Source of the DNA: an uncultured Clostridia bacterium
GTDB lineage: Bacteria; Bacillota; Clostridia; Oscillospirales; CAG-272
NCBI GenBank assembly: GCA_947652805.1
Contig: CANTEM010000001.1
Coordinates: forward strand, 1-49,384
Reading direction: 5' to 3'
DNA: 49,384 nt
Part shown: piece by piece, positions 2,359-39,249 of the stretch
Numbering within the stretch: position 1 is the first letter of the stretch
How the letters are laid out: each line of letters starts with the position of its first letter
Translations under genes and position numbers: made by a program
Notes under the pieces: model-generated
What the model was told of the DNA's origin: nothing
Database searches by the model: none
Seen by the model: the letters and a program-made list of their open reading frames with translations, nothing else

Positions 2359-2510
2359 AAAGCCTCCCTTGTGTAAAGGGAGGTGGCTTGCCGTAAGGCA
2401 AGGCGGAGGGATTGTTATGCGATCATTTTGGATGATCTGCAAATCGGCAGTATTACTTAGACAATCCCTCACCCGCTTCGCGGGAGCTCCCTTTACACAA
2501 GGGAGGCTTT
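2359..2510. repeat. Nested-palindrome intergenic repeat, full copy 1 (between mnmE and rny)
   Basis: Outer arms AAAGCCTCCCTTGTGTAAAGGGAG (2359-2382) and the exact complement CTCCCTTTACACAAGGGAGGCTTT (about 2487-2510). Inner arms GAGGGATTGT (2406-2415) and ACAATCCCTC (2461-2470). Conserved 45-nt core at 2416-2460. Sub-hairpins CTTGCC-GTAA-GGCAAG and CCCGC-TTC-GCGGG. A degenerate solo arm lies at 2326-2344. Confidence 0.85.
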
Positions 2511-11765: not shown

Positions 11766-11860
11766 AGGCTCCCCCAGCAGGAGTTCGTAAAGCGAATCTG
11801 GCGATTCGCACTTACTTCCATAGCCCCCCCTTTTGCACAAGGGAGCCTTACATAGCTTGT
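11766..11860. repeat. Repeat-family modules inside the mreD-mrdA intergenic gap
   Basis: GGCTCCCCCAGCAGGAG module, hairpin GCGAATC-TGGC-GATTCGC, then the arm motif CCCCCCCTTTTGCACAAGGGAGCCTTA (about 11823-11849). The motifs are the same as in the full copies. Confidence 0.7.
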
Positions 11861-12639: not shown

Positions 12640-13459
12640 ATTCTGTTATAATCATAAACCGGTCCTCGTCGGACAAGGACGCCGCCGGTTGGATGTACAC
12701 ATTGAGGGCTTGGCTGTATGGATCCTGTTCAATTTCCGTTACGTATCCGATTACAAGCGCCCGGGGATACACGCTGCCGTAGCCGCTGGAGAGAATCCGG
12801 TCGCCGACTTCCACATCTGCGTCCGCTCCAAGATAGGACAGCTTGCACAGCCCCTGGGACGCAAGGGAGAAATCTCCCTCTACAACGCCCACTGCGCCGC
12901 TGCGTTCTACATATGCACCGATCGCCTGCCCGGATTCCAGAATTGTCACCGCCTTGGACCAGCCGATTCCTGCTTCCGTTACATATCCCACAATTCCTTT
13001 GCTGCTGATAATCGGCATATTTTTCTGTACGCCGTGGGAGGTGCCTTTATCCAGCGTATATACGGTCATGTAGTTTCCGCTTTCTCTGCCGGTAACGCCT
13101 GCGCTTTCAAATTTGAAATCTGTCCGTTCCCGTTTCAGTTCCAGATAGTCGTAAAGCCATTCGTTCATTCCGGCAAGCTCCTGAGATTTATAAATCTCAT
13201 CCTGGAGAGAATCAATCTGGGCGCGCAGCGCGTTGTTTTCCGCCACGATCCGATCAAATTCCGTAAAATATGAGGTAAAACCCTCCACTGCGTTTGTTGC
13301 GCAGGTGAACAGCCCCTGTATGGGAGACAGAAGAGACATTGCGGCATCCTTTACAACGGAATGGAGTCCCATGGCGCTGAGCACTGTGGGAACAATGGTG
13401 AGCACAAGGGTCACTAGAACGATGACGATAAAAAAACGGGTTTTCAGAAAATTACGCAC
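12620..13459 (-). CDS. mreC: Rod shape-determining protein MreC
   Basis: 279 aa. N-terminal TM, coiled coil (ENNALRAQIDSLQDEI), C-terminal beta-barrel domains with GIVGYVTE and GDRILSSG type motifs. Lies between mreB and mreD. Confidence 0.9.
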   Translation of the reverse strand: MRNFLKTRFFIVIVLVTLVLTIVPTVLSAMGLHSVVKDAAMSLLSPIQGLFTCATNAVEGFTSYFTEFDRIVAENNALRAQIDSLQDEIYKSQELAGMNEWLYDYLELKRERTDFKFESAGVTGRESGNYMTVYTLDKGTSHGVQKNMPIISSKGIVGYVTEAGIGWSKAVTILESGQAIGAYVERSGAVGVVEGDFSLASQGLCKLSYLGADADVEVGDRILSSGYGSVYPRALVIGYVTEIEQDPYSQALNVYIQPAASLSDEDRFMIITEYDAYTE

Positions 13460-20368: not shown

Positions 20369-20662
20369 GGCTCCCCCCAGCAAAGCACCACCAAACTATA
20401 TCAGCTCCCCAGCAATTTTAATCAATATAAAAAGGCTCCCGTGTGAGGATCCACTGCGTGGCTCCATAGGGAGCTGTCGCGATAGCGACTGAGGGATTGT
20501 CCTTCTATCGTTTTGGATAATCTGCAAATCAGCAGTCTCCCAAAACAATCCCTCCGTCACGGCAAAGCCGTGCCACCTCCCTTTGCACAAGGGAGGCATA
20601 GGTGCGTAGTTTGTCGCGACAGTTCCCTAGGATCAAGCGGCTCCAGCACAAGGGAGCCTTAT
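20369..20662. repeat. Composite repeat block including full copy 2 of the nested palindrome
   Basis: Modules in order: GGCTCCCCCCAGCAAAG (20369-20385); CCCCAGCAATTTTAATCAATATAAAAAGGCTCCC (20407-20440); a left arm interrupted by an insertion; sub-hairpin GTCGC-GATA-GCGAC; inner arms at 20491-20500 and 20545-20554; core at 20501-20544; sub-hairpin CACGGC-AAA-GCCGTG; right arm CCTCCCTTTGCACAAGGGAGGC; and an extra solo arm CACAAGGGAGCCTTA at about 20647-20661. Confidence 0.85.
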
Positions 20663-22251: not shown

Positions 22252-22277
22252 AAAGGCTCCCTTGTGTAAAGTGGGAG
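22252..22277. repeat. Solo repeat arm hairpin between DUF1934 and holA
   Basis: AAAGGCTCCCTTGTGTAAAGTGGGAG, the same arm motif as the full copies, placed directly after the stop codon. Confidence 0.7.
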
Positions 22278-24458: not shown

Positions 24459-24548
24459 GCCTCCCCCCAGCAAAGGGGCATGGCGTAGGCATCCACCAAA
24501 CGCAAAGGCTCCCTTGTGTTGGAGCTGCGAAGCAGCTGCGCGGGAGTC
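24459..24548. repeat. Partial repeat block (left-half modules) between gtrA-like gene and ygiQ-like gene
   Basis: GCCTCCCCCCAGCAAAG (24459-24475), CCACCAAAC, the arm AAAGGCTCCCTTGTGTTGGAGC, then sub-hairpin GCTGC-GAA-GCAGC. Confidence 0.7.
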
Positions 24549-24591
24549 CTATTTCATCAATGATACAATCCACAGAAAGGCATGGTCTATA

Positions 24592-26477: not shown

Positions 26478-26612
26478 AAGGGCTCCTTTGTGCTATTGCG
26501 CACCATTCTTTAAGCCTCCCTTGGGGGGATCTGCGGAGCTCAGACTGAATTAGGTCCCCTTGTGCAAATCGCCACAATTAAAAGCCTCCCTTTGCACAAG
26601 GGAGCCTTAAGA
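26478..26612. repeat. Degenerate repeat block between ygiQ-like gene and sfsA
   Basis: Four arm motifs: AGGGCTCCTTTGTGC, AAGCCTCCCTTGGGGGG, GGTCCCCTTGTGCAAA and the self-pairing AAAGCCTCCCTTTGCACAAGGGAGCCTTA. No inner arms or core. Confidence 0.7.
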
Positions 26613-28934: not shown

Positions 28935-29190
28935 GGTTCCCCAGCAATTTTAACCAATATAAAAAGGCTCCCTGGGGGAGCTGGGCAGCACACCAATATA
29001 AGAAAGGCTCCCTTGTGTAAAGGGAGCTGTCGCGAAGCGACTGAGGGATTGTCTCGTTAAGTTGCCGATTTGTAGATTATTCAAAATGATAGCATAACAA
29101 TCCCTCCGAGTTTTGCTACGCAAAACCCACCCCCCTTTGCACAAGGGGGGCTTTTTGTTTGGTTGCCTCCTCGCAAGGGAGCCTTTTTGG
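28935..29190. repeat. Composite repeat block including full copy 3 (core inverted)
   Basis: CCCCAGCAATTTTAACCAATATAAAAAGGCTCCC (28939-28972). Left arm AAAGGCTCCCTTGTGTAAAGGGAG (about 29004-29027). Sub-hairpin GTCGC-GAA-GCGAC. Inner arms at 29043-29052 and 29097-29106. Core at 29053-29096 in the reverse orientation. Sub-hairpin GTTTTGC-TAC-GCAAAAC. Right arm at 29127-29152, then an additional arm at 29166-29186. Confidence 0.85.
29130..29160 (+). terminator. Intrinsic terminator formed by a repeat arm, downstream of the HEPN-CBS gene
   Basis: CCCCCCTT-TGCAC-AAGGGGGG (8-bp stem) immediately followed by CTTTTTGTTT. Confidence 0.6.
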
Positions 29191-29215: not shown

Positions 29216-31747
29216 CTACTGCTGCGATGTGTTCAAGGTTTTGTCCATCCAGTTCCAGCGCTTTTCAATAAAGGTTTTCAAATATTCCACTTGCCGTTCG
29301 TGGGTGTTACACAGTACGACTGCTTCCGGCTGCATGCCCACCCGAGCAAACAAAATATCCCATACTGCAAAATTATCATCCGCCGAGGGGGCGGTAAGAC
29401 GGTATCCTTCCTCCAGAGCCGCCCTTGCTGTCTCCAGCAGCGGAGCCTTTATCTCGTTCCAGCGATCCCGCAGCTGCGTCACGAACGCGTCATCCCGCAT
29501 AAGCTGACACATCCAGTTGTAATGCACGTATCCGCCGTCGTCGGTCAAACATGCCCATTCCTCATACCGCTGTAAATCTGCCACGCTATTTCCAAAGGCT
29601 AAATCAAAGTCCCAAACCTGAGACATTTTCAGCTTTTGCCCTGCTCCTTTGGTCATAAAAACGCTTCGCCGGAAGCAGGAATCTGCGTTGTAGGAAAGCT
29701 CCGTCATGATAAACCAGTCGATCAGGGAGGGAATATCAATATAATTTTCATAGTCCCCCATCACTTTTACTGCGCCGTCGGTCATATTGATATAATTTTC
29801 AATATAAGTCAGCGTTTGCTCGTCTGCACCGGCAGGCTCCAAAACGCCGATATTGCGCAGTATGGAGGAGGAAAATACAGGATGCCCGCTGTCCCGGCTC
29901 ACGCCCAGCTCCAGCAAAAATCCGGTATTTACATTTCCTGCGTCCTCATGAATGTACAGCCGTCCCTGTCCCTTTTCTACCTGTTGTCCTAAGGTATAAA
30001 CCCCCACATATTCTCCGTTTAAAAAAACGTCCACGGGATATTGGGTGGCATAGCAATCCATGTTGTCCAGCACCTTAGCGCATTCCAGCGCCACATAATT
30101 GCGGATGAGACTTTTGTCTGCAAAATTTGCAAGAAGCACCCAGGTTTTTTCGCTCTCCATCCCCAAAACAGACTGGGATTCTTCAAATTTGATTTTGTAG
30201 GGCTTTTTTTCCGCCCATTCCCATGTGGTGTTGCCCCGCCCACGGATTTTTGCCGTGCTGGCTTCCAGAGAAGGCAGACCGGCAGAAAAGTCGCTTTCAA
30301 TAGAAATTGTGGCTCCCACATATTCTTCTTTCGAGGTGATCGCCGCGCCGCCCTCTGTTTCAATGTGTACCACCGGCATTTGCAGGGAGCAGTTTGTTTC
30401 TATATAGTAAAGTGAGGTGCCTGCCCTGTCGGATACTTTCATATAGCAGCCCATGGGATCCAGCAGGTTTACTGTGCCGTCGCTGTTTACACTGCCGGCA
30501 AAGGATACGGTGCAGTCCGGGGAAACAGATACGGTTAGAGAAGCATTTTTCAGAGCGGAAGGGGAGAGGACGCTGTCCACCTGCGCTCTGTATACAAAAG
30601 GCGCGTCCTGCGCGGTTGTCCAGCGGATATCTGCTGTGGTATATGCATTGTTTGCCACTTCCAGGGTGATCTCCGGCACAGCAGAGCAGGTTCCGCCAAG
30701 GGTATATCCCGAAAGGATTTGCCCGTTATAGTCCCGGAGACGGTAAAGCAATGCCGCTGTGTGAAGGGGAGGGCAGTTTTCTTCCCAAATCAAAGAACAG
30801 TTCGGAGCGTCCAGAAGGATTTTGTCCAGAGGGAATGCTCCCTCCAGTCTGATTTCTCCGGTGGAATCTGTTTGTATTGCGATCGGTGCATCCAGCACCG
30901 CGCCGTTCAGGGACAGGGACACAGGAATCGAAAAGGTGATTTTCCGATCCACCGTAAAAGCTTCAAGCCGGATCGTCGTACCCGGCGCAGCGCGTTCAAA
31001 GTCCGTGCCGGCTGCCAGCGTTTCCAGTTCTTCCATAGAAGAAACGGTAAGTGTGCCGTCCAGAGACTCCCCATTGAGAGACGCGGCGGCAACGGTTAAA
31101 GGAATATTTTCAGGGGTGAGGGAATCCGGCACGTTGATATCACATTTCGGAGCACGGGCATAAAAGCCAGAAGCTAAAATGCCGCCGGACAGGGAAAGGG
31201 TGCCGGATTCGCCTGTGACAAAGGAAACCGGACCTTTGACCGAGAGGGTGTGTCCGTCTGTGGAGAGAGACAAGGGTTTTGTTATGTACAACGGGTTCTC
31301 CAGTGTAATATCTTGCAGCAAGGTAATATCCGACGCATCGGAAACGGCTGTCTCCAGCCCTGCCGGGGAAAGGATATATGCCTGATCCGTCCCTTCCTGC
31401 ATCATGCGGATGCCGCCATTCAAATCCGCTTTTTCGGAGAGAGATACAGAAGCAGAATCGGAGCTGCCTGCGGCCGCCGTGAAAGTAACAAACCCGCCTT
31501 CTGCGGCGTTTGTGTACAGGCTGACGGAAGCTTCCCTATCTGTATTATTGTAAAAGGTGAGTTTTACATCACCGGACAAAGCCACCTGTCGGAGGGCGGG
31601 ACCTTCCTCTGTGGAAAAAAGGAGGGTATGATTTGCATACAACCACAATCCGTTACCTTTGTGCCGGTCGCAGGAAATAAACAGGAGGATACACGAAAGC
31701 AGCAGGGTGAGAAGTCCTGTCGATACAATTTTTTTGCTCATATGCAT
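29216..31747 (-). CDS. CotH kinase-family protein with lipoprotein-type signal peptide and long N-terminal beta-rich region
   Basis: 843 aa. N-terminus MHMSKKIVSTGLLTLLLSCILLFISCD (lipobox-like). The C-terminal ~350 aa carry CotH signatures: NFADKSLIRNYVALE, VDVFLNGEYVGVYTL, VWDFDLAFGN. Confidence 0.85.
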   Translation of the reverse strand: MHMSKKIVSTGLLTLLLSCILLFISCDRHKGNGLWLYANHTLLFSTEEGPALRQVALSGDVKLTFYNNTDREASVSLYTNAAEGGFVTFTAAAGSSDSASVSLSEKADLNGGIRMMQEGTDQAYILSPAGLETAVSDASDITLLQDITLENPLYITKPLSLSTDGHTLSVKGPVSFVTGESGTLSLSGGILASGFYARAPKCDINVPDSLTPENIPLTVAAASLNGESLDGTLTVSSMEELETLAAGTDFERAAPGTTIRLEAFTVDRKITFSIPVSLSLNGAVLDAPIAIQTDSTGEIRLEGAFPLDKILLDAPNCSLIWEENCPPLHTAALLYRLRDYNGQILSGYTLGGTCSAVPEITLEVANNAYTTADIRWTTAQDAPFVYRAQVDSVLSPSALKNASLTVSVSPDCTVSFAGSVNSDGTVNLLDPMGCYMKVSDRAGTSLYYIETNCSLQMPVVHIETEGGAAITSKEEYVGATISIESDFSAGLPSLEASTAKIRGRGNTTWEWAEKKPYKIKFEESQSVLGMESEKTWVLLANFADKSLIRNYVALECAKVLDNMDCYATQYPVDVFLNGEYVGVYTLGQQVEKGQGRLYIHEDAGNVNTGFLLELGVSRDSGHPVFSSSILRNIGVLEPAGADEQTLTYIENYINMTDGAVKVMGDYENYIDIPSLIDWFIMTELSYNADSCFRRSVFMTKGAGQKLKMSQVWDFDLAFGNSVADLQRYEEWACLTDDGGYVHYNWMCQLMRDDAFVTQLRDRWNEIKAPLLETARAALEEGYRLTAPSADDNFAVWDILFARVGMQPEAVVLCNTHERQVEYLKTFIEKRWNWMDKTLNTSQQ

Positions 31748-31855
31748 CCTCCTGAAGGTTACGAATATACTTCATTCTATCACAAACTGGTGGGGCTTGC
31801 TACCAAAGAGGATGAAAGTTTACAAAAGAAAATTCTGGAAAAGTCTGCCTATCCT

Positions 31856-33775
31856 TTACACATCCATATCCTCTGCCACGGAGAACCCTTCTTCTTCCTC
31901 ATATAACTGCATCAGCTGATCTTCCACGTAGATTCGCTGATCCTCTAACTGGGCGGCCTTGACATAGTCCGTGGCATCCTCGCCGTACAATCGGTCTGTA
32001 ATCTGGGCAAGCTCTTTTTCCAAACGGACGATTTCCCCAGCCACCTTCCTGCGTCGGGCTTCCTTGCGTCGCACCGCCGCCTGTTCTTCCTTCTTTTTCA
32101 AATACTGTTCCTTGCCGCTGGGAACCGCCGCAGGTGTTGCCGGGGCTTCTTTCGGCTGGGAAGAATCTGCTGCGGCGATATATTCGTCATATCCCCCCCT
32201 GAAATCCCGCACCGGATTTTCCAGAGACAAAATTCTTGTTGCAAGCCGCTGGATAAAATACCGGTCGTGAGACACAGCGATGACAGTGCCTTCAAAAGCT
32301 TCCAGTGCATTTTCCAGCGCCTCTCGGGAGGGGATATCCAAATGGTTGGTAGGTTCGTCCAGAATCAGTACGTTTACCTTGGATAAAATCAGTTTTGCAA
32401 GGGTCAGCCGGGCGCGTTCTCCCCCGGACAGAACCGATACGGTTTTTTCCACATCCTCTCCCCGGAACATGAACACGGCAAGAATGGAAAAGAGTTCTTT
32501 CCTGCCAATAGTGGGATATGCGTCCCACAGCTCGTCCAGCACCGTTTTGTCCGGCGACAGGTTTTGGTTTTCCTGATCGTAATATCCAACCTGCACATTG
32601 TAGCCGAACTCCACCCGTCCTGTCCGTGGCGTCAGCTTGCCCAGAAGAGTTTTCAGCAAAGTGGATTTTCCGCAGCCGTTGGGGCCTGCGATAATCAACC
32701 GCTCTCCCCGCTTTACGGAAAAGGAGAGATCGGAAAACAGATTTTCACTGCCAAAGCCCACTGCCAGCTTTTTCACATCCAATACGTCGTTGCCCGAACG
32801 GACAGCCTTGGAAAAGGCAAACTGTAAGGTTTTGGGGGCGTCCTCCGGCTTTTCCACTTTGTCCATGCGGGCAATGGCTTTTTCCCGGCTTTCCGCCGCA
32901 ATGATATTCCGCTCCCGGTTCCACCGGCGCTGCTGCTCGATATATGCTTCCAGCCGGGCGATCTCCCGCTGCTGGAGTATGTACTGCTTTTCCTGTGCCG
33001 CGCGCTGCTCTTCCTTTTGCTTTTTATATGCCGTGTAGGCGCATTTATACAGCTTTGCCTTGTGATTTTCAATATCCAGGGTTTTGTTTGTCACCCGGTC
33101 CAGAAAATACCGGTCGTGGCTGACCAGAAGCAGTGTCTTTTTATAACCTGCCAAGTGCCCCTCCAGCCAGGTCATGGTTTCAATATCCAAATGGTTGGTG
33201 GGCTCGTCCAGAATCAGAATATCCGGCTCCCGGAACAGAAGCCGGGCAAGGGCAAGCCTTGTCCGCTGTCCCCCGGACAGGGTAGTGATGCTCCGGGAAA
33301 ATGTGTCCTCATCGAACCCAAGCTTTGCAAGGAGACTTTTGCACCGGGATTTGTAGTGCAGACCGCCCGCCTCTGTAAAGCGGGTGTTCAGCCGTTCGTA
33401 TTCTGCGCTTAGAGACAATAGCCGCTCCTGTGGTGCAGTTTCCATTTCTGTCTCCAATTGAGCAAGCCGGGCTTCATCTCGACAAAGCTCTGGAAACGCC
33501 GCGTACATTTGGGCAAGGACGGTGTCGTCCCCTTCCAGCACCTGAAAGGAGTCATCCTGCCGCATCATGCCGATCTGTTTGTCTTTGGCAAAATATACGC
33601 CTCCCTCATCCGCTTCCTCCATACCGGTGATCAGCCGGAGCAGGGTCGTTTTGCCGCTTCCGTTTACGCCTACGATTCCCAGACGGTCCCCTTCTTCTAT
33701 AGAGAAGGTGACCCCGGACAGAATCCTGTTTGTTCCAACACTGTAAGACAGGTTGCTCACACTCAATGCGATCAT
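31856..33775 (-). CDS. ABC-F family ATPase (translation factor type, no TM domains)
   Basis: 639 aa. Two ABC cassettes (GVNGSGKTT / LSGGQRTR and GPNGCGKST / LSGGERAR), a helical interdomain linker and a C-terminal Lys/Glu coiled coil as in the Uup/YdiF-like ABC-F group. Confidence 0.9.
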   Translation of the reverse strand: MIALSVSNLSYSVGTNRILSGVTFSIEEGDRLGIVGVNGSGKTTLLRLITGMEEADEGGVYFAKDKQIGMMRQDDSFQVLEGDDTVLAQMYAAFPELCRDEARLAQLETEMETAPQERLLSLSAEYERLNTRFTEAGGLHYKSRCKSLLAKLGFDEDTFSRSITTLSGGQRTRLALARLLFREPDILILDEPTNHLDIETMTWLEGHLAGYKKTLLLVSHDRYFLDRVTNKTLDIENHKAKLYKCAYTAYKKQKEEQRAAQEKQYILQQREIARLEAYIEQQRRWNRERNIIAAESREKAIARMDKVEKPEDAPKTLQFAFSKAVRSGNDVLDVKKLAVGFGSENLFSDLSFSVKRGERLIIAGPNGCGKSTLLKTLLGKLTPRTGRVEFGYNVQVGYYDQENQNLSPDKTVLDELWDAYPTIGRKELFSILAVFMFRGEDVEKTVSVLSGGERARLTLAKLILSKVNVLILDEPTNHLDIPSREALENALEAFEGTVIAVSHDRYFIQRLATRILSLENPVRDFRGGYDEYIAAADSSQPKEAPATPAAVPSGKEQYLKKKEEQAAVRRKEARRRKVAGEIVRLEKELAQITDRLYGEDATDYVKAAQLEDQRIYVEDQLMQLYEEEEGFSVAEDMDV

Positions 33776-36592: not shown

Positions 36593-37261
36593 TCAGTCGT
36601 CTGCCAGTCCGTCCTGGCGGAGCATCTGACTGAGTACGTCTATATCGGTAGAAATATCTAAATCATCATTTTTATATAATGCGTCCAGCTGCTTTTTCAA
36701 GGCGCTGTCGATTCCCGCGAACGCGTCCTCGATTTTTGTTTCTATTTCCGCAAGGGTCTGCATTTCTTCTGCGTTCCCACGGGACTGTCCCAGAAGAAAG
36801 ATATATTTATCACACAGCTTGCGTATGACTGGAAGATAATACCCCGCAAGTCGGCGGCAGCTTTGAAAATCGGAGGGATCTGCCTGAAGATTTTTTACAA
36901 TCTTATGCAGTGTTGTGCTGACAGACTGAATTCTCTGTGCAAAGGGCGCACGGCTTTCCGGCAGCAGCTCTGCCGCGGCAGTTAAGTGAATCGCCTCTGC
37001 TTCAATCTGCACGCACAGCGCGTCTGCATCCGTGTTGCCGGAGGTGGGGCGGGGCGCATCCACATATTCTTTATATTCCGGTGCAATCACCCAGGTGATC
37101 AGCCATGCGGAAAGACTGACAACTGCTACAATTAAAATATCCGCGGTTCTGTATATGGGATAGAACAGTCCGGCGAGCACCCAGACTGCTGCGCACACCC
37201 ACATAGGCAGCGCAGATTTCTTTTTTATGCAGATTTTTTTATCGGAACGCGCATTTTTCAT
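36593..37261 (-). CDS. xpaC: XpaC-like (5-bromo-4-chloroindolyl phosphate hydrolysis protein family) membrane protein
   Basis: 222 aa with two N-terminal TM helices and a helical C-terminal domain. It lies immediately upstream of the telA/yaaN homologue, as xpaC-yaaN does in B. subtilis. The assignment rests mainly on architecture and synteny. Confidence 0.6.
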   Translation of the reverse strand: MKNARSDKKICIKKKSALPMWVCAAVWVLAGLFYPIYRTADILIVAVVSLSAWLITWVIAPEYKEYVDAPRPTSGNTDADALCVQIEAEAIHLTAAAELLPESRAPFAQRIQSVSTTLHKIVKNLQADPSDFQSCRRLAGYYLPVIRKLCDKYIFLLGQSRGNAEEMQTLAEIETKIEDAFAGIDSALKKQLDALYKNDDLDISTDIDVLSQMLRQDGLADD

Positions 37262-38136
37262 ACCTTTTCTCCGACCTCCTCCGAGGATTTCAATACAACC
37301 GAATCAGACAGTGCAAGGGAAAGAAACCTGCACAGTGCATAAGCCGTCATTCCAAAGCAGCATGCAAGCTGGGAGGGTGCCATATTATATCCGGGAGTTT
37401 CCGTGACGAGTCCCAGAATGGCGCTGATGGAAACAGTACCGCCGATGATTACTGTGAAGATCAGGGAAAACAGATACCGGCAAAAAACGGATTTTCTTCC
37501 CAGAGACAGACCGGCTGTGGCAGTGAGAAACAGCATGAAGGAAATATACATAAGCTGATAAATGATTTTGACAGGGCTGTTTGTAGCGGAGTTTTCATCG
37601 AAATATATGATAAATAACTGCGCAGCCGCATAAAAAGGCGGAAAGAAGGAAGAGCAGACTGCCAGCGAGCTGTTCCGTGCTTTCCCGGGCGCAATATCAC
37701 AGATCAGATAAAGGATAAAAAGCAAGGCAAATATATTGGACGACAATAACAGACACCAGTATGGGAGCGGATGTCCCCAGTAATGCTGGGAAGAGGAGGT
37801 GCCTGCATGGAACAAGCTCAGCAGGGTGGTGCCCATATGCCACAGCAGGGCGATGATAAGCACCCCGGAAACAATTTTTGTATACATGGGAGTAGGAATG
37901 CGGGATCTTTCCGGAACGGTTTTCCTGAAAAGCAGCCAGGATCCCGCGGCAAGCACTACGCTGGCTGCCAGCACAGCATAGAGAAGTCCTGCTTTGACAG
38001 AACCTCTTTCAAAATAGCCAAGCTTTGACGAATAGTCGCTCACAATGGCAAGAGACATACAAAATGCACCGAGGACGGCGAGCAGCACCGCGCCGCACAG
38101 GAGATAAGCCAAAATCGTTTTTTTATTTTTTACCAT
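37258..38136 (-). CDS. Polytopic membrane protein of unknown function, first gene of the operon
   Basis: About 8 predicted TM helices and no recognisable motif. Its stop overlaps the xpaC start (ATGA). The ATG at 38136 is preceded by a GAGGAAGG RBS. The ORF track start is 38190. Confidence 0.6.
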   Translation of the reverse strand: MVKNKKTILAYLLCGAVLLAVLGAFCMSLAIVSDYSSKLGYFERGSVKAGLLYAVLAASVVLAAGSWLLFRKTVPERSRIPTPMYTKIVSGVLIIALLWHMGTTLLSLFHAGTSSSQHYWGHPLPYWCLLLSSNIFALLFILYLICDIAPGKARNSSLAVCSSFFPPFYAAAQLFIIYFDENSATNSPVKIIYQLMYISFMLFLTATAGLSLGRKSVFCRYLFSLIFTVIIGGTVSISAILGLVTETPGYNMAPSQLACCFGMTAYALCRFLSLALSDSVVLKSSEEVGEKV

Positions 38137-38240
38137 AAAGAGCGCCTTCCTCATGCCAATCAATTTTTTACCTATTATATAGAGTAACACAAATCCGGGT
38201 TTAAATCAATATATTTTATGAAAAATTCGCAGGAGAGGTA

Positions 38241-38455
38241 AAAAGCCCCCCTTGTGCTACACCAACTTAAGCCTCCCTTGTGTAAAGGGAGCTGGCTCCG
38301 CAGAGCGGAGACTGAGGGATTGTCCTTACTATCATTTTGAATCATCTTCAAATCGGCAGTTCACGCAAACAATCCCTCCGAGTTTTGCTGCGCAAAACCC
38401 ACCTCCCTTTACACAAGGGAGGCTTAAGTTGGTGTTGCATAAGGGAGCCTTTCTT
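38241..38455. repeat. Nested-palindrome repeat, full copy 4 (best preserved) plus flanking solo arms
   Basis: Perfect 32-nt inverted repeat at 38260-38291 and 38403-38434. Sub-hairpins CTCCGC-AGA-GCGGAG and GTTTTGC-TGC-GCAAAAC. Inner arms at 38314-38323 and 38369-38378, core at 38324-38368. Solo arms at 38243-38258 and 38441-38455. Confidence 0.9.
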
Positions 38456-38591
38456 TTCGCAAACTCCTTTATCTTGTGCCATTTCCGCACCCAAACACAA
38501 CATATATAAAGCTTCGTCATAATGCACAAATAAATTCGCAAAAATTCTATAAAAATTTCCGAAATTTCTTTTAAAAAAATTTGCACATCCG

Positions 38592-38626: not shown

Positions 38627-38937
38627 GCTTGATGTGCGATGAAACGGAAGGTTGCCGCCCTTTTTGCTACAGAGGACGGGGAATTTCCGTGGAGTATGTC
38701 CGTTTTGAAAACGGGCGAAGCGAACGCGAGCGCAGGCGGGCAGTCGATGTGTGTAAGACTGACCTGCGGATCTCTGCACTGCTCCGGCAGGGCGGAATGT
38801 GTCCGGATGAAAAGTACGGCGGATTTGTGGTTGCACCGCCGGAGTGCTTTTTGATCCGGTTTCCTTCAGGAGATCCTGGAAACGCCCGGGAGCGTGTTCG
38901 TCGCCTCGGCAAGTAAAAAAATTTAGGAGGCAAAACA
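38627..38937 (+). promoter_or_regulatory. Long GC-rich 5' leader of the S10 operon with a terminator-like element
   Basis: About 310 nt lie between the predicted TSS and the rpsJ GTG. Stems: CGGCGG (38817-38822) with CCGCCG (38836-38841), and an overlapping alternative GCACT (38776-38780) with AGTGC (38843-38847) followed by TTTTT (38848-38852). A further hairpin GGTTTCC...GGAAAC lies at about 38858-38882. Confidence 0.4.
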
Positions 38938-39249
38938 GTGGCAACAAAGATCAAGGTTCGGCTCAAGAGTTATGAGCACACGCTGGCAGACAGCGCAGCA
39001 GCTAAAATTGTGGAAGTTGCAAAAAGAGCAGGCGCACAGGTTTCCGGTCCGATTCCCCTTCCCACAGAGAAGGAAATCGTAACCATCCTGCGTGCAGTAC
39101 ACAAGTATAAGGACAGCCGCGAACAGTTTGAACAGCGCACGCACAAGAGACTGATCGTCCTTGAAAACGCTGATGCAAAGGTTGTTGAATCCCTTCTGGG
39201 TGTGGAACTTCCCGCGGGCGTTGAAATTGAAGCGAAAGAAGTAAAGTAA
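38938..39249 (+). CDS. rpsJ: 30S ribosomal protein S10
   Basis: GTG start 7 nt after [16 protein letters not shown]...GPIPLPT...RTHKRLI matches S10. Confidence 0.97.

Follow-up and report, generated by a model that had tools for sequence, protein, structure and literature searches.

What is the long nested palindrome that lies upstream of the ribosomal protein S10 gene in a contig of an uncultured Clostridia bacterium (CANTEM010000001.1, positions 1 to 49,384)? A sequence-only reading of this 49,384-nt stretch, referred to as the window in the following, had described it as the best-preserved of four full copies of an intergenic repeat that belongs to no named family. We examined this claim with a covariance model, with related loci from other genomes and by comparison of strains. 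The element is confirmed as a member of a real dispersed, extragenic and modular palindromic DNA repeat family of gut Oscillospirales, which apparently is undescribed.

The covariance model, R1, was built from 74 related copies found outside the window (alignment A2). It detects exactly four full copies in the window, with 119–133 bits and E values of 5e-32 to 5e-36; the density is four copies per 49 kb. The same number results from the 10-nt inner arms GAGGGATTGT and ACAATCCCTC. Each has four exact occurrences in the window, and these are always paired at a spacing of 44–45 nt (2406/2461, 20491/20545, 29043/29097 and 38314/38369). Both the count of four and the intergenic location of the full copies are as first reported. 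One boundary was corrected: copy 2 had been placed at 20462 but begins at about 20434, some 28 nt earlier. In the loop of its left outer hairpin an additional hairpin, GGATCCACTGCGTGGCTCC, is inserted, and this variant arm was also found in five loci from other genomes (L017, L082, L001, L013 and L101). The outer arms of copy 1 form a perfect inverted repeat over 25 nt. The 8-mer CCCTTGTG, which is part of the arm, occurs 16 times in the window on both strands, while 1.7 occurrences are expected and none of 100 shuffled sequences reaches 16. About 20 arm motifs, close variants included, had originally been counted, none of them in a confidently assigned gene. Two of the exact 8-mers, at 13403 and 48190, are located within coding open reading frames, where they are probably chance matches.

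All copies share one frame: AAAA-GGCTCCCTTGTG(T/C)AAAGGGAGC-TG-[hp1]-ACT-GAGGGATTGT-[core]-ACAATCCCTC-CG-[hp2]-CCA-CCTCCCTTT(A/G)CACAAGGGAGGC-TTT, where hp1 and hp2 are variable mini-hairpins. The element is about 150 nt long, contains five hairpins and consists of two inverted half-units which flank a non-palindromic centre of 38–52 nt. From outside to inside, a half-unit is composed of an A-run, a G+C hairpin (CTCCCTT-GTGYA-AAGGGAG), a mini-hairpin and the inner arm. The frame is near-invariant in the 74-copy alignment, and the junctions CTG/ACT and CG/CCAC are invariant. Conservation extends well beyond the terminator-like arm, as more than 100 copies elsewhere keep the five-hairpin frame. 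The flanks continue the inverted symmetry, with A at position −1 in 68 and T at position +1 in 63 of 73 copies.

The two halves are not equivalent but differ systematically. The H1 half has the form GCTCCC/GGGAGC ... CTG ... ACT, the H2 half the form CCTCCC/GGGAGG ... TGG ... CG. An H1 half is combined with an H2 half in 135 elements, whereas H1/H1 (seven) and H2/H2 (six) combinations are rare. This pairing gives the element a polarity, which amounts to 25–45 bits between the strands in R1. As a further result, three positions of the long hairpin are fixed as mismatches; one is a T·C opposition beside the inner stem, and the other two are located in the outer arms.

Each outer arm had been described as a hairpin on its own, and local pairing is indeed maintained at 99% over the 74 copies. 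Double changes from T-A to C-G occur within a single arm, which preserves the local hairpin and disrupts the long-range pairing. The variable loop bases of the left and right arm nevertheless tend to be complementary (Fisher p=3e-4), and the two outer arms are thus not independent in evolution. The mini-hairpins hp1 and hp2 vary freely in sequence and length, yet they are nearly always perfect hairpins. When read inward, 109 of 220 carry a GNA triloop, closed by a C-G pair in 99 of the 109, while the flipped form TNC was found once. The motif d(cGNAg) is a very stable DNA hairpin which depends on the C-G closing pair (PMC3201870). The GNA form is on the top strand in left halves and on the bottom strand in right halves, so that one transcript cannot contain both.

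The centre is constrained in a different way. The cores fall into 59 sequence clusters. Type A is the one present in multiple copies in the window genome and in three other metagenome-assembled genomes (MAGs), CANPFW, CASTST and CATLAS, and most other types are represented by single loci common to related MAGs. A further multi-copy type, found in JAZSFJ and its relatives, has conserved ends (CCCAATTCGCC...GCCGC) and a hypervariable middle. The core that had been considered conserved is indeed of type A in all four window copies; it is, however, only one of many types and is inverted in copy 3. The core of that copy is the reverse complement of those in copies 1, 2 and 4, although its flanks are oriented as in copy 4; aligned with the core of copy 4, it scores −4 forward and +21 in reverse. 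Type A cores are present in both orientations within the frame, 47 in the majority orientation (F) and 13 reversed (R); the window is split two and two. The inverted core, the asymmetry of the halves, the diversity of cores and the resemblance to the BIME, REPIN and ERIC elements discussed below had escaped the sequence-only reading.

Three further ideas about the core and its surroundings were tried and rejected. A role as guide or spacer was checked by comparing about 38 concatenated non-type-A cores with 50,697 GenBank phage records (blastn), which gave one chance match of 22 nt (E=2). A GGAGGG-N5-ATG sequence opens a 33-codon frame in copy 1, and this frame is interrupted by stop codons in other copies. 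Partial matches to a DnaA box or an IHF site in the core are restricted to single copies and are not conserved.

The locus from which the question arose, copy 4, shows the complete architecture (Table 1). Direct reading of the sequence verified that no mismatch interrupts 32 nt of its outer inverted repeat (38260–38291 versus 38403–38434). The left arm has an extra outer layer, GCCCCCCTTGTGC..., which resembles a split arm hairpin enclosing the element. The hp2 region is a direct repeat of 29096–29153 in copy 3, with 93% identity over 58 nt. The predicted fold, in which a long outer stem closes a four-way junction of hp1, the inner stem-loop and hp2, is far more stable than that of shuffled sequences (z = −14.6 as DNA, −14.4 as RNA).

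Table 1. Elements, remnants and single arms in the window, with the parts of copy 4.
Feature	Position	Strand	Remarks
Copy 1, full element	2362-2507	-	R1 125.1 bits on - strand, 90.0 on +; downstream of mnmE, upstream of rny (Pfam on neighbours)
Copy 2, full element	20434-20597	+	R1 118.9 bits
Copy 3, full element	29006-29151	+	R1 133.2 bits; core inverted relative to own frame; between convergent CBS-domain and CotH genes (Pfam on neighbours)
Copy 4, full element	38271-38423	+	R1 128.2 bits, E 1.2e-34 on +, 90.4 bits on -; frame S+ with H1 half left and H2 half right; core in majority 'F' orientation
Copy 4, left arm of long outer inverted repeat	38242-38295		Repeat search: 54-nt arms, 91% complementary
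Copy 4, right arm of long outer inverted repeat	38399-38452		Partner of 38242-38295
Copy 4, left outer local hairpin CTCCCTT-GTGTA-AAGGGAG	38273-38291	+	
Copy 4, mini-hairpin hp1, GGCTCCGC-AGA-GCGGAGAC	38294-38312	+	Variable
Copy 4, inner arm GAGGGATTGT	38314-38323	+	
Copy 4, 45-nt core, type A	38324-38368	+	Consensus CtaTCATTTTgnAnnAtcTncAAATCGgCAGtat
Copy 4, inner arm ACAATCCCTC	38369-38378	+	
Copy 4, mini-hairpin hp2, CGAGTTTTGC-TGC-GCAAAACCCA	38379-38401	+	Same module in copy 3
Copy 4, right outer local hairpin CTCCCTT-TACAC-AAGGGAG	38403-38421	+	
Degenerate remnant	26481-26606	n/a	R1 22-23 bits, E ~1e-4; intact solo arm 26586-26604 inside
Degenerate remnant with solo arm	11767-11847	n/a	R1 15 bits, E ~0.01
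Solo outer-arm hairpin	22257-22277	+	

Besides full elements, the family comprises solo arms (Table 1) and tandem arrays of 44-nt arm units. Arms may also be nested in the loops of other arms; the left arm of copy 2 and the outermost layer around copy 4 are examples. In one locus (L050, 2764–3260), three complete elements follow each other head to tail with a period of 165 nt. Two intergenic regions of the window, 24460–24550 and 26480–26580, are dense with degenerate arm fragments, for example the CCTCCCCCCAGCAAAGGGG variant and CTCCCTTGTGTTGGAGC, which suggests decayed older copies.

To determine the distribution of the family, one genome per species was scanned with the pattern GAGGGATTGT-N38-52-ACAATCCCTC, which returned at least 115 stretches. 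Among the matches listed, nearly all belong to Oscillospirales or Clostridia MAGs, labelled Oscillospiraceae, Acutalibacteraceae, Faecousia, Vescimonas, 'Ruminococcus', Aristaeellaceae, Eubacteriales or Clostridia, and a few are chance matches without arms. Many loci came from the CANPFW, CASTST, CATLAS and JAZSFJ MAGs; the S10 protein of the CASTST MAG is identical to that of the window. We then counted inner-arm pairs in 821 kb of loci plus the window, with one mismatch allowed. The inner arms are almost exclusively found as inward-facing pairs, 155 of them at a spacing of 38–52 nt with a mode of 44–45 nt. Only three inward-facing pairs are outside this range, one at 31 nt and two at more than 200 nt.

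Full elements with both arms were also seen in a Bulleidia sp. contig that is assigned to the Erysipelotrichales (L072, 383–522) and in an IMG/VR contig that is classified as viral (L133, about 2560–2710). These copies could reflect horizontal transfer, mis-binning or misclassification. The possibility of a phage-borne element was rejected, as 2.9 million IMG/VR contigs yielded a single match.

The position of the elements relative to genes was analysed with genes called by a codon-usage score, which recovers the gene map of the window. No element is located inside a gene. The gene context is convergent for 22 elements, tandem for 32 and divergent for 4, compared with a background of 57/336/69 (Fisher p=5e-6). 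Elements are thus enriched between convergent genes, and placement is biased towards gene 3' ends. Orientation is random: relative to the gene reading in, the frame is found at 15:17 and the type A core at 23:16. Target-site duplications were not found, since direct matches between the 8-nt flanks (2.07 of 8) are at the level of shuffled flanks (2.14), and exact direct flank repeats of 3–6 nt occur in 0–2 of 73 copies.

The neighbours of the four window copies and of 20 copies elsewhere are unrelated housekeeping genes. Examples are RNase Y, MnmE, aldehyde dehydrogenase, an AP endonuclease-like protein, CBS, CotH, S10 and DnaB, and further SpoIVA, two-component systems, MazF and PhoU. No transposase or recombinase Pfam domain was detected among these neighbours, a few of which lack any Pfam match, in agreement with the initial statement that no transposase is associated. 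Across about 1 Mb of loci, DnaB and MnmE genes are the only ones flanked by an arm at either side, and neither in these loci nor in the window did we see a longer element or a transposase bounded by arms. One element (L036, 3606–3995) separates a response-regulator gene from a histidine-kinase gene of the same strand; like some REP/BIME elements, it is thus probably located within an operon.

Related strains differ in their elements. All seven related contigs which span the site upstream of S10 contain the element, with flanks that are about 98% identical; an eighth contig (L123) starts within the element at its end. In a mosaic fashion, the strains carry different versions of hp1 and of the left arm and different numbers of duplicated right arms. 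A second, truncated copy, which the window lacks, is present in most of the related contigs. The core has the same orientation in every contig spanning the element. Presence/absence polymorphism, proposed at the outset as a possible sign of mobility, was observed at the CotH/ABC-F site (31747–31856). This site is empty in the window and carries a full element in five related contigs (L126, 2318–2739; L127, 2192–2701; L128, 2248–2755; L129, 395–863; L131, 1–243); the element of L131 is in the opposite orientation, and in a sixth contig (L130) the only copy is truncated by the end of the contig. Four contigs contain 1–4 tandem 44-nt arm units at this site, a length polymorphism like that of variable-number tandem repeats. 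Comparison of the window with L020 at the mnmE site shows cores of the same absolute orientation in frames of opposite orientation. This hints that the minority core arrangement arises from exchange of halves and not from flipping of the core. For copies 1–3, a strain comparison by exact protein matches retrieved only near-identical or truncated contigs. A search of metagenomes with a pattern for the S10-site core gave no match to the reversed form and none to the forward control either.

Which process maintains such an element? The reading which we favour, with moderate confidence, is that of a mosaic palindromic repeat, comparable to REP/BIME/REPIN and ERIC, which acts at the DNA level and has terminator-like arms. 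The element would act and evolve as DNA, with single-stranded or cruciform hairpins driving gene conversion and template switching between or within copies. Such events would keep the small palindromes perfect while their sequence drifts, and would swap or flip modules, halves and the centre. A trans-acting protein which recognises the invariant hairpins probably exists, although none was found, and it could be a host protein or the product of a single-copy transposase-like gene; the near-invariant frame across families suggests such a conserved partner. The DNA-level reading is based on the symmetric halves, each of which is 'correct' on the inward strand, on the cGNAg loops, on the indifference to the direction of transcription and on the exchange of modules. 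Both the H1/H2 rule and the lack of palindromy in the centre may restrict how perfect the long palindrome becomes; for REP dimers, heterodimer preference and the hazards of long hairpins have been discussed (PMC3733652).

Outer hairpins with T-runs would serve as two-way intrinsic terminators and as 3'-end protectors for the flanking genes. Within a region of 19 kb, the four strongest terminator-like sites include both outer hairpins of copy 3, which also represent two of the three sites with the longest stems (8 pairs). Each of them is terminator-like on the strand where it would end transcripts that have crossed the element. About 45–48% of the arms have at least five T in the following 9 nt. 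Function of the outer arms as two-way intrinsic terminators is therefore plausible from their sequence.

Several observations weigh against this interpretation. T-rich tails are as common where no gene reads into the element (41/84) as otherwise (18/41). Copy 4 is in the wrong place for a terminator, and its arms lack a T-run: the S10-Clostridia leader (Rfam RF03136, 38.2 bits) is located at 38630–38718 (+), about 200 nt downstream of the element and about 220 nt upstream of rpsJ (38938–39249), which assigns copy 4 to the divergent promoter region of the S10 operon. The differences at the CotH/ABC-F site are multi-module indels without clean edges, so that insertion was not directly observed. 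No RAYT or IS200-like mobilising gene was found in the 1 Mb of loci; the tblastn search with an IS200 TnpA query, which is a weak test, gave nothing below E=0.18. Transcription, termination and single-stranded intermediates are all inferred from sequence. Finally, conservation of the frame across families would be explained no less well by a functional RNA or by a conserved binding site for a protein.

A structured non-coding RNA, either a small RNA or an element of the 3' untranslated region, would use the multi-stem frame to display the variable 38–52-nt loop to an RNA-binding protein. Consistent with this, hp1, hp2 and the core vary while the hairpins stay paired, as in RNA covariation, the fold is very stable also as RNA, and cores of the JAZSFJ type combine conserved ends with a hypervariable middle. 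We nevertheless consider an RNA rather unlikely. Frame and core have no preferred orientation to flanking transcription, the same frame accommodates the type A core either way round, and, as the element is nearly symmetric, RNAs from its two strands would be almost equivalent. Most loops are cGNAg triloops, distributed over both strands, whereas selected RNA hairpins more often have GNRA or UNCG tetraloops on one strand. There is no Rfam match, the variable cores have no GenBank phage matches, and perfect variable palindromes can also arise by quasipalindrome template switching without selection on RNA. A more far-reaching idea, which we regard as unlikely, is that the frame is the recognition scaffold of a putative clade-wide protein, such as a single-stranded DNA transposase or recombinase or a nucleic-acid binder, and that the 38–52-nt centre is cargo or an address which is exchanged or re-oriented. 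If true, Bacillota would have a new system of mobility or recombination based on hairpins, the logic of which would resemble attC sites or guide scaffolds more than passive repeats.

The inverted termini, the length of about 150 bp, the many intergenic copies and the presence/absence differences between genomes would also fit a classical miniature inverted-repeat transposable element (MITE), that is, a DDE-type insertion sequence reduced by deletion, which is mobilised by cut-and-paste via its terminal inverted repeats. This is a decidedly improbable origin, since there is no target-site duplication, and no parent insertion sequence or transposase bounded by arms was seen in the window or in about 1 Mb of loci. 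Moreover, the 'termini' are self-folding hairpins which also occur solo, in tandem arrays and nested in loops, and the modular interior is exchanged piecewise. Both orientations of one core type within the same frame, and the opposite cores of copies 3 and 4 despite their common hp2 module, could indicate an invertible switch in which a site-specific recombinase flips the 44–45-nt core at the inner arms. We judge such a switch very improbable: 45 bp leave very little room for two recombinase sites to synapse on one duplex, no recombinase gene adjoins any copy examined, the sampled strains all have the same orientation at the S10 site, and the arrangement at the mnmE site suggests exchange of halves. 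It is hardly credible that the elements are ordinary intrinsic terminators which are alike by chance and lack any repeat-family biology. G+C hairpins flanked by A- and T-runs at gene 3' ends are what this would predict, but independent terminators would not share a 150-nt architecture of five hairpins with 10-nt inner arms invariant across genomes. Also, the T-runs are independent of context, and copy 4 is in a divergent promoter region.

Known families were searched for a relative of the element. At the gathering threshold, Rfam gave no match to it, the leader upstream of rpsJ being the only match in the window; at E<=10, the region 38200–38480 yielded only two chance-level matches of 13–14 bits. 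In a full-text literature search, the motif strings were found only in unrelated contexts outside bacterial genomics, and nothing relevant was found in the literature on MITEs or repeats in Oscillospiraceae. The claim that the sequence matches no named family is thereby upheld, and no such family seems to have been described before in this phylum and habitat.

ERIC (or IRU) elements are imperfect palindromes of about 127–150 bp which are extragenic, occur in either orientation, are conserved across genera and have length variants caused by insertion at fixed internal sites; no transposase is known for them. The element described here is likewise an extragenic imperfect palindrome of about 150 bp with a cross-genus distribution and internal insertion variants. 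Its sequence is unrelated, however, and in ERIC the centre is conserved, whereas here the centre is variable and the frame conserved. ERIC copy numbers are modest, unlike those of the present family. The Correia elements of Neisseria and the BOX elements of Streptococcus pneumoniae are small, multi-copy, intergenic sequences with long hairpins, which can supply terminators or affect neighbouring transcripts; BOX is modular (boxA-B-C). In Correia elements, the terminal inverted repeats measure 26 bp and the target-site duplication is TA, while no duplication is found here. BOX modules do not form a symmetric nested palindrome, and both sequences are unrelated to ours. Integron attC sites share several traits with the element: an imperfect palindrome with inner and outer boxes, a polarity resulting from fixed mismatches, a variable centre and presumed action as folded single-stranded DNA, as proposed here. 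But attC sites are located at the 3' ends of promoterless cassettes, arrayed beside the integrase gene intI and in fixed orientation, in contrast to the housekeeping neighbours and random orientation in the present case, and they conserve structure, whereas our element conserves the sequence itself.

Together with ERIC, REP/BIME/REPIN sequences offer the closest organisational parallel. They are likewise extragenic, of high copy number and biased to 3' ends. They also consist of short hairpin units arranged in inverted pairs around a spacer, occurring as singles, pairs and clusters, without target-site duplication and as a mosaic of interchangeable motifs. In BIME-1, the palindromic units Y and Z1 surround an L motif, and a heterodimer rule, by which the two units of a pair are distinct variants, has been reported for many REP families (PMC3733652). 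The alternation of two variants has its counterpart in the H1/H2 pairs, which is an organisational analogy without sequence relationship. The differences are substantial. The conserved, unpaired 5' GTAG tag of REP is absent beside all hairpins of the 74-copy alignment, where only 'CG' is invariant after the inner arm. A REP unit is 20–40 nt long, compared with about 150 nt, five hairpins and three stems per half in our element. REP sequences are normally species-specific, while the frame is near-identical across several families. They are elements of Proteobacteria, and the present family belongs to Bacillota. RAYT-mobilised repeats go with a single-copy RAYT gene (IS200-like Y1 HUH, PF01797) which they flank in the same genome; the weak search of about 1 Mb of loci gave no counterpart.

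Many hp2 modules read CGTC-stem-loop-stem-CCA, for example CGTCACGGCTTACGCCGTGCCAC, and thereby recall the CGTC-tagged REPs described by Di Nocera et al. (2013), which are without dedicated transposase and prefer head-to-head heterodimers (PMC3733652). That class is defined by an unpaired CGTC head, an 8–9 bp stem starting from A-T pairs, a 4–5 nt loop and a CCA tail (PMC3733652). In the present family the bases after CG are variable (CGT, CGA, CGG, CGC), so that only 'CG' and '(C)CAC' are invariant. Further, hp2 has stems of 5–9 bp with 3–4-nt loops and is an internal module, whereas the CGTC-tagged REP hairpin is itself the repeat unit.

Most of what has been worked out on extragenic palindromic repeats comes from Proteobacteria, and the family would provide a well-defined example in uncultured Oscillospirales, a dominant and poorly studied group of the gut. 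Passive decay of a selfish repeat hardly explains the cross-family frame, the two-variant rule and the cGNAg mini-hairpins, nor a centre constrained in length and not in sequence and a module exchange that is visible even among near-identical strains. In combination, such features point to a trans-acting partner or to strong hairpin-driven gene conversion. It is plausible, judging from the arms, that the elements shape transcription termination beside core genes, for instance upstream of the S10 operon. What we describe is a clean, unusually structured repeat family and not yet evidence for a new kind of system. On the practical side, the elements fragment short-read assemblies of these MAGs, and the strain-level length polymorphisms which they cause could serve for typing. 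Short-read contigs of the window's own species stop in or at elements. Contig ends at elements were noted for L125 and L134–L137, and many of the loci L001–L115 have an element less than 100 nt from the end.

Two minor observations concern the surroundings of the window copies. The gene on the other side of copy 4 (37258–38190, − strand, about 280 aa) has no Pfam match and keeps its syntenic position beside the Halogen_Hydrol/TelA genes in all related contigs. The motif TWAAYCAATATA is found at 20418–20429, 28950–28961 and 38202–38213, that is, 16–56 nt upstream of copies 2, 3 and 4 and on the H1 side each time. It was rejected as a family feature, as it is limited to these three copies and is not found beside copies in other genomes. 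Copies 2 and 3 also have a common 35-nt flank with 97% identity (20406–20440 and 28938–28972).

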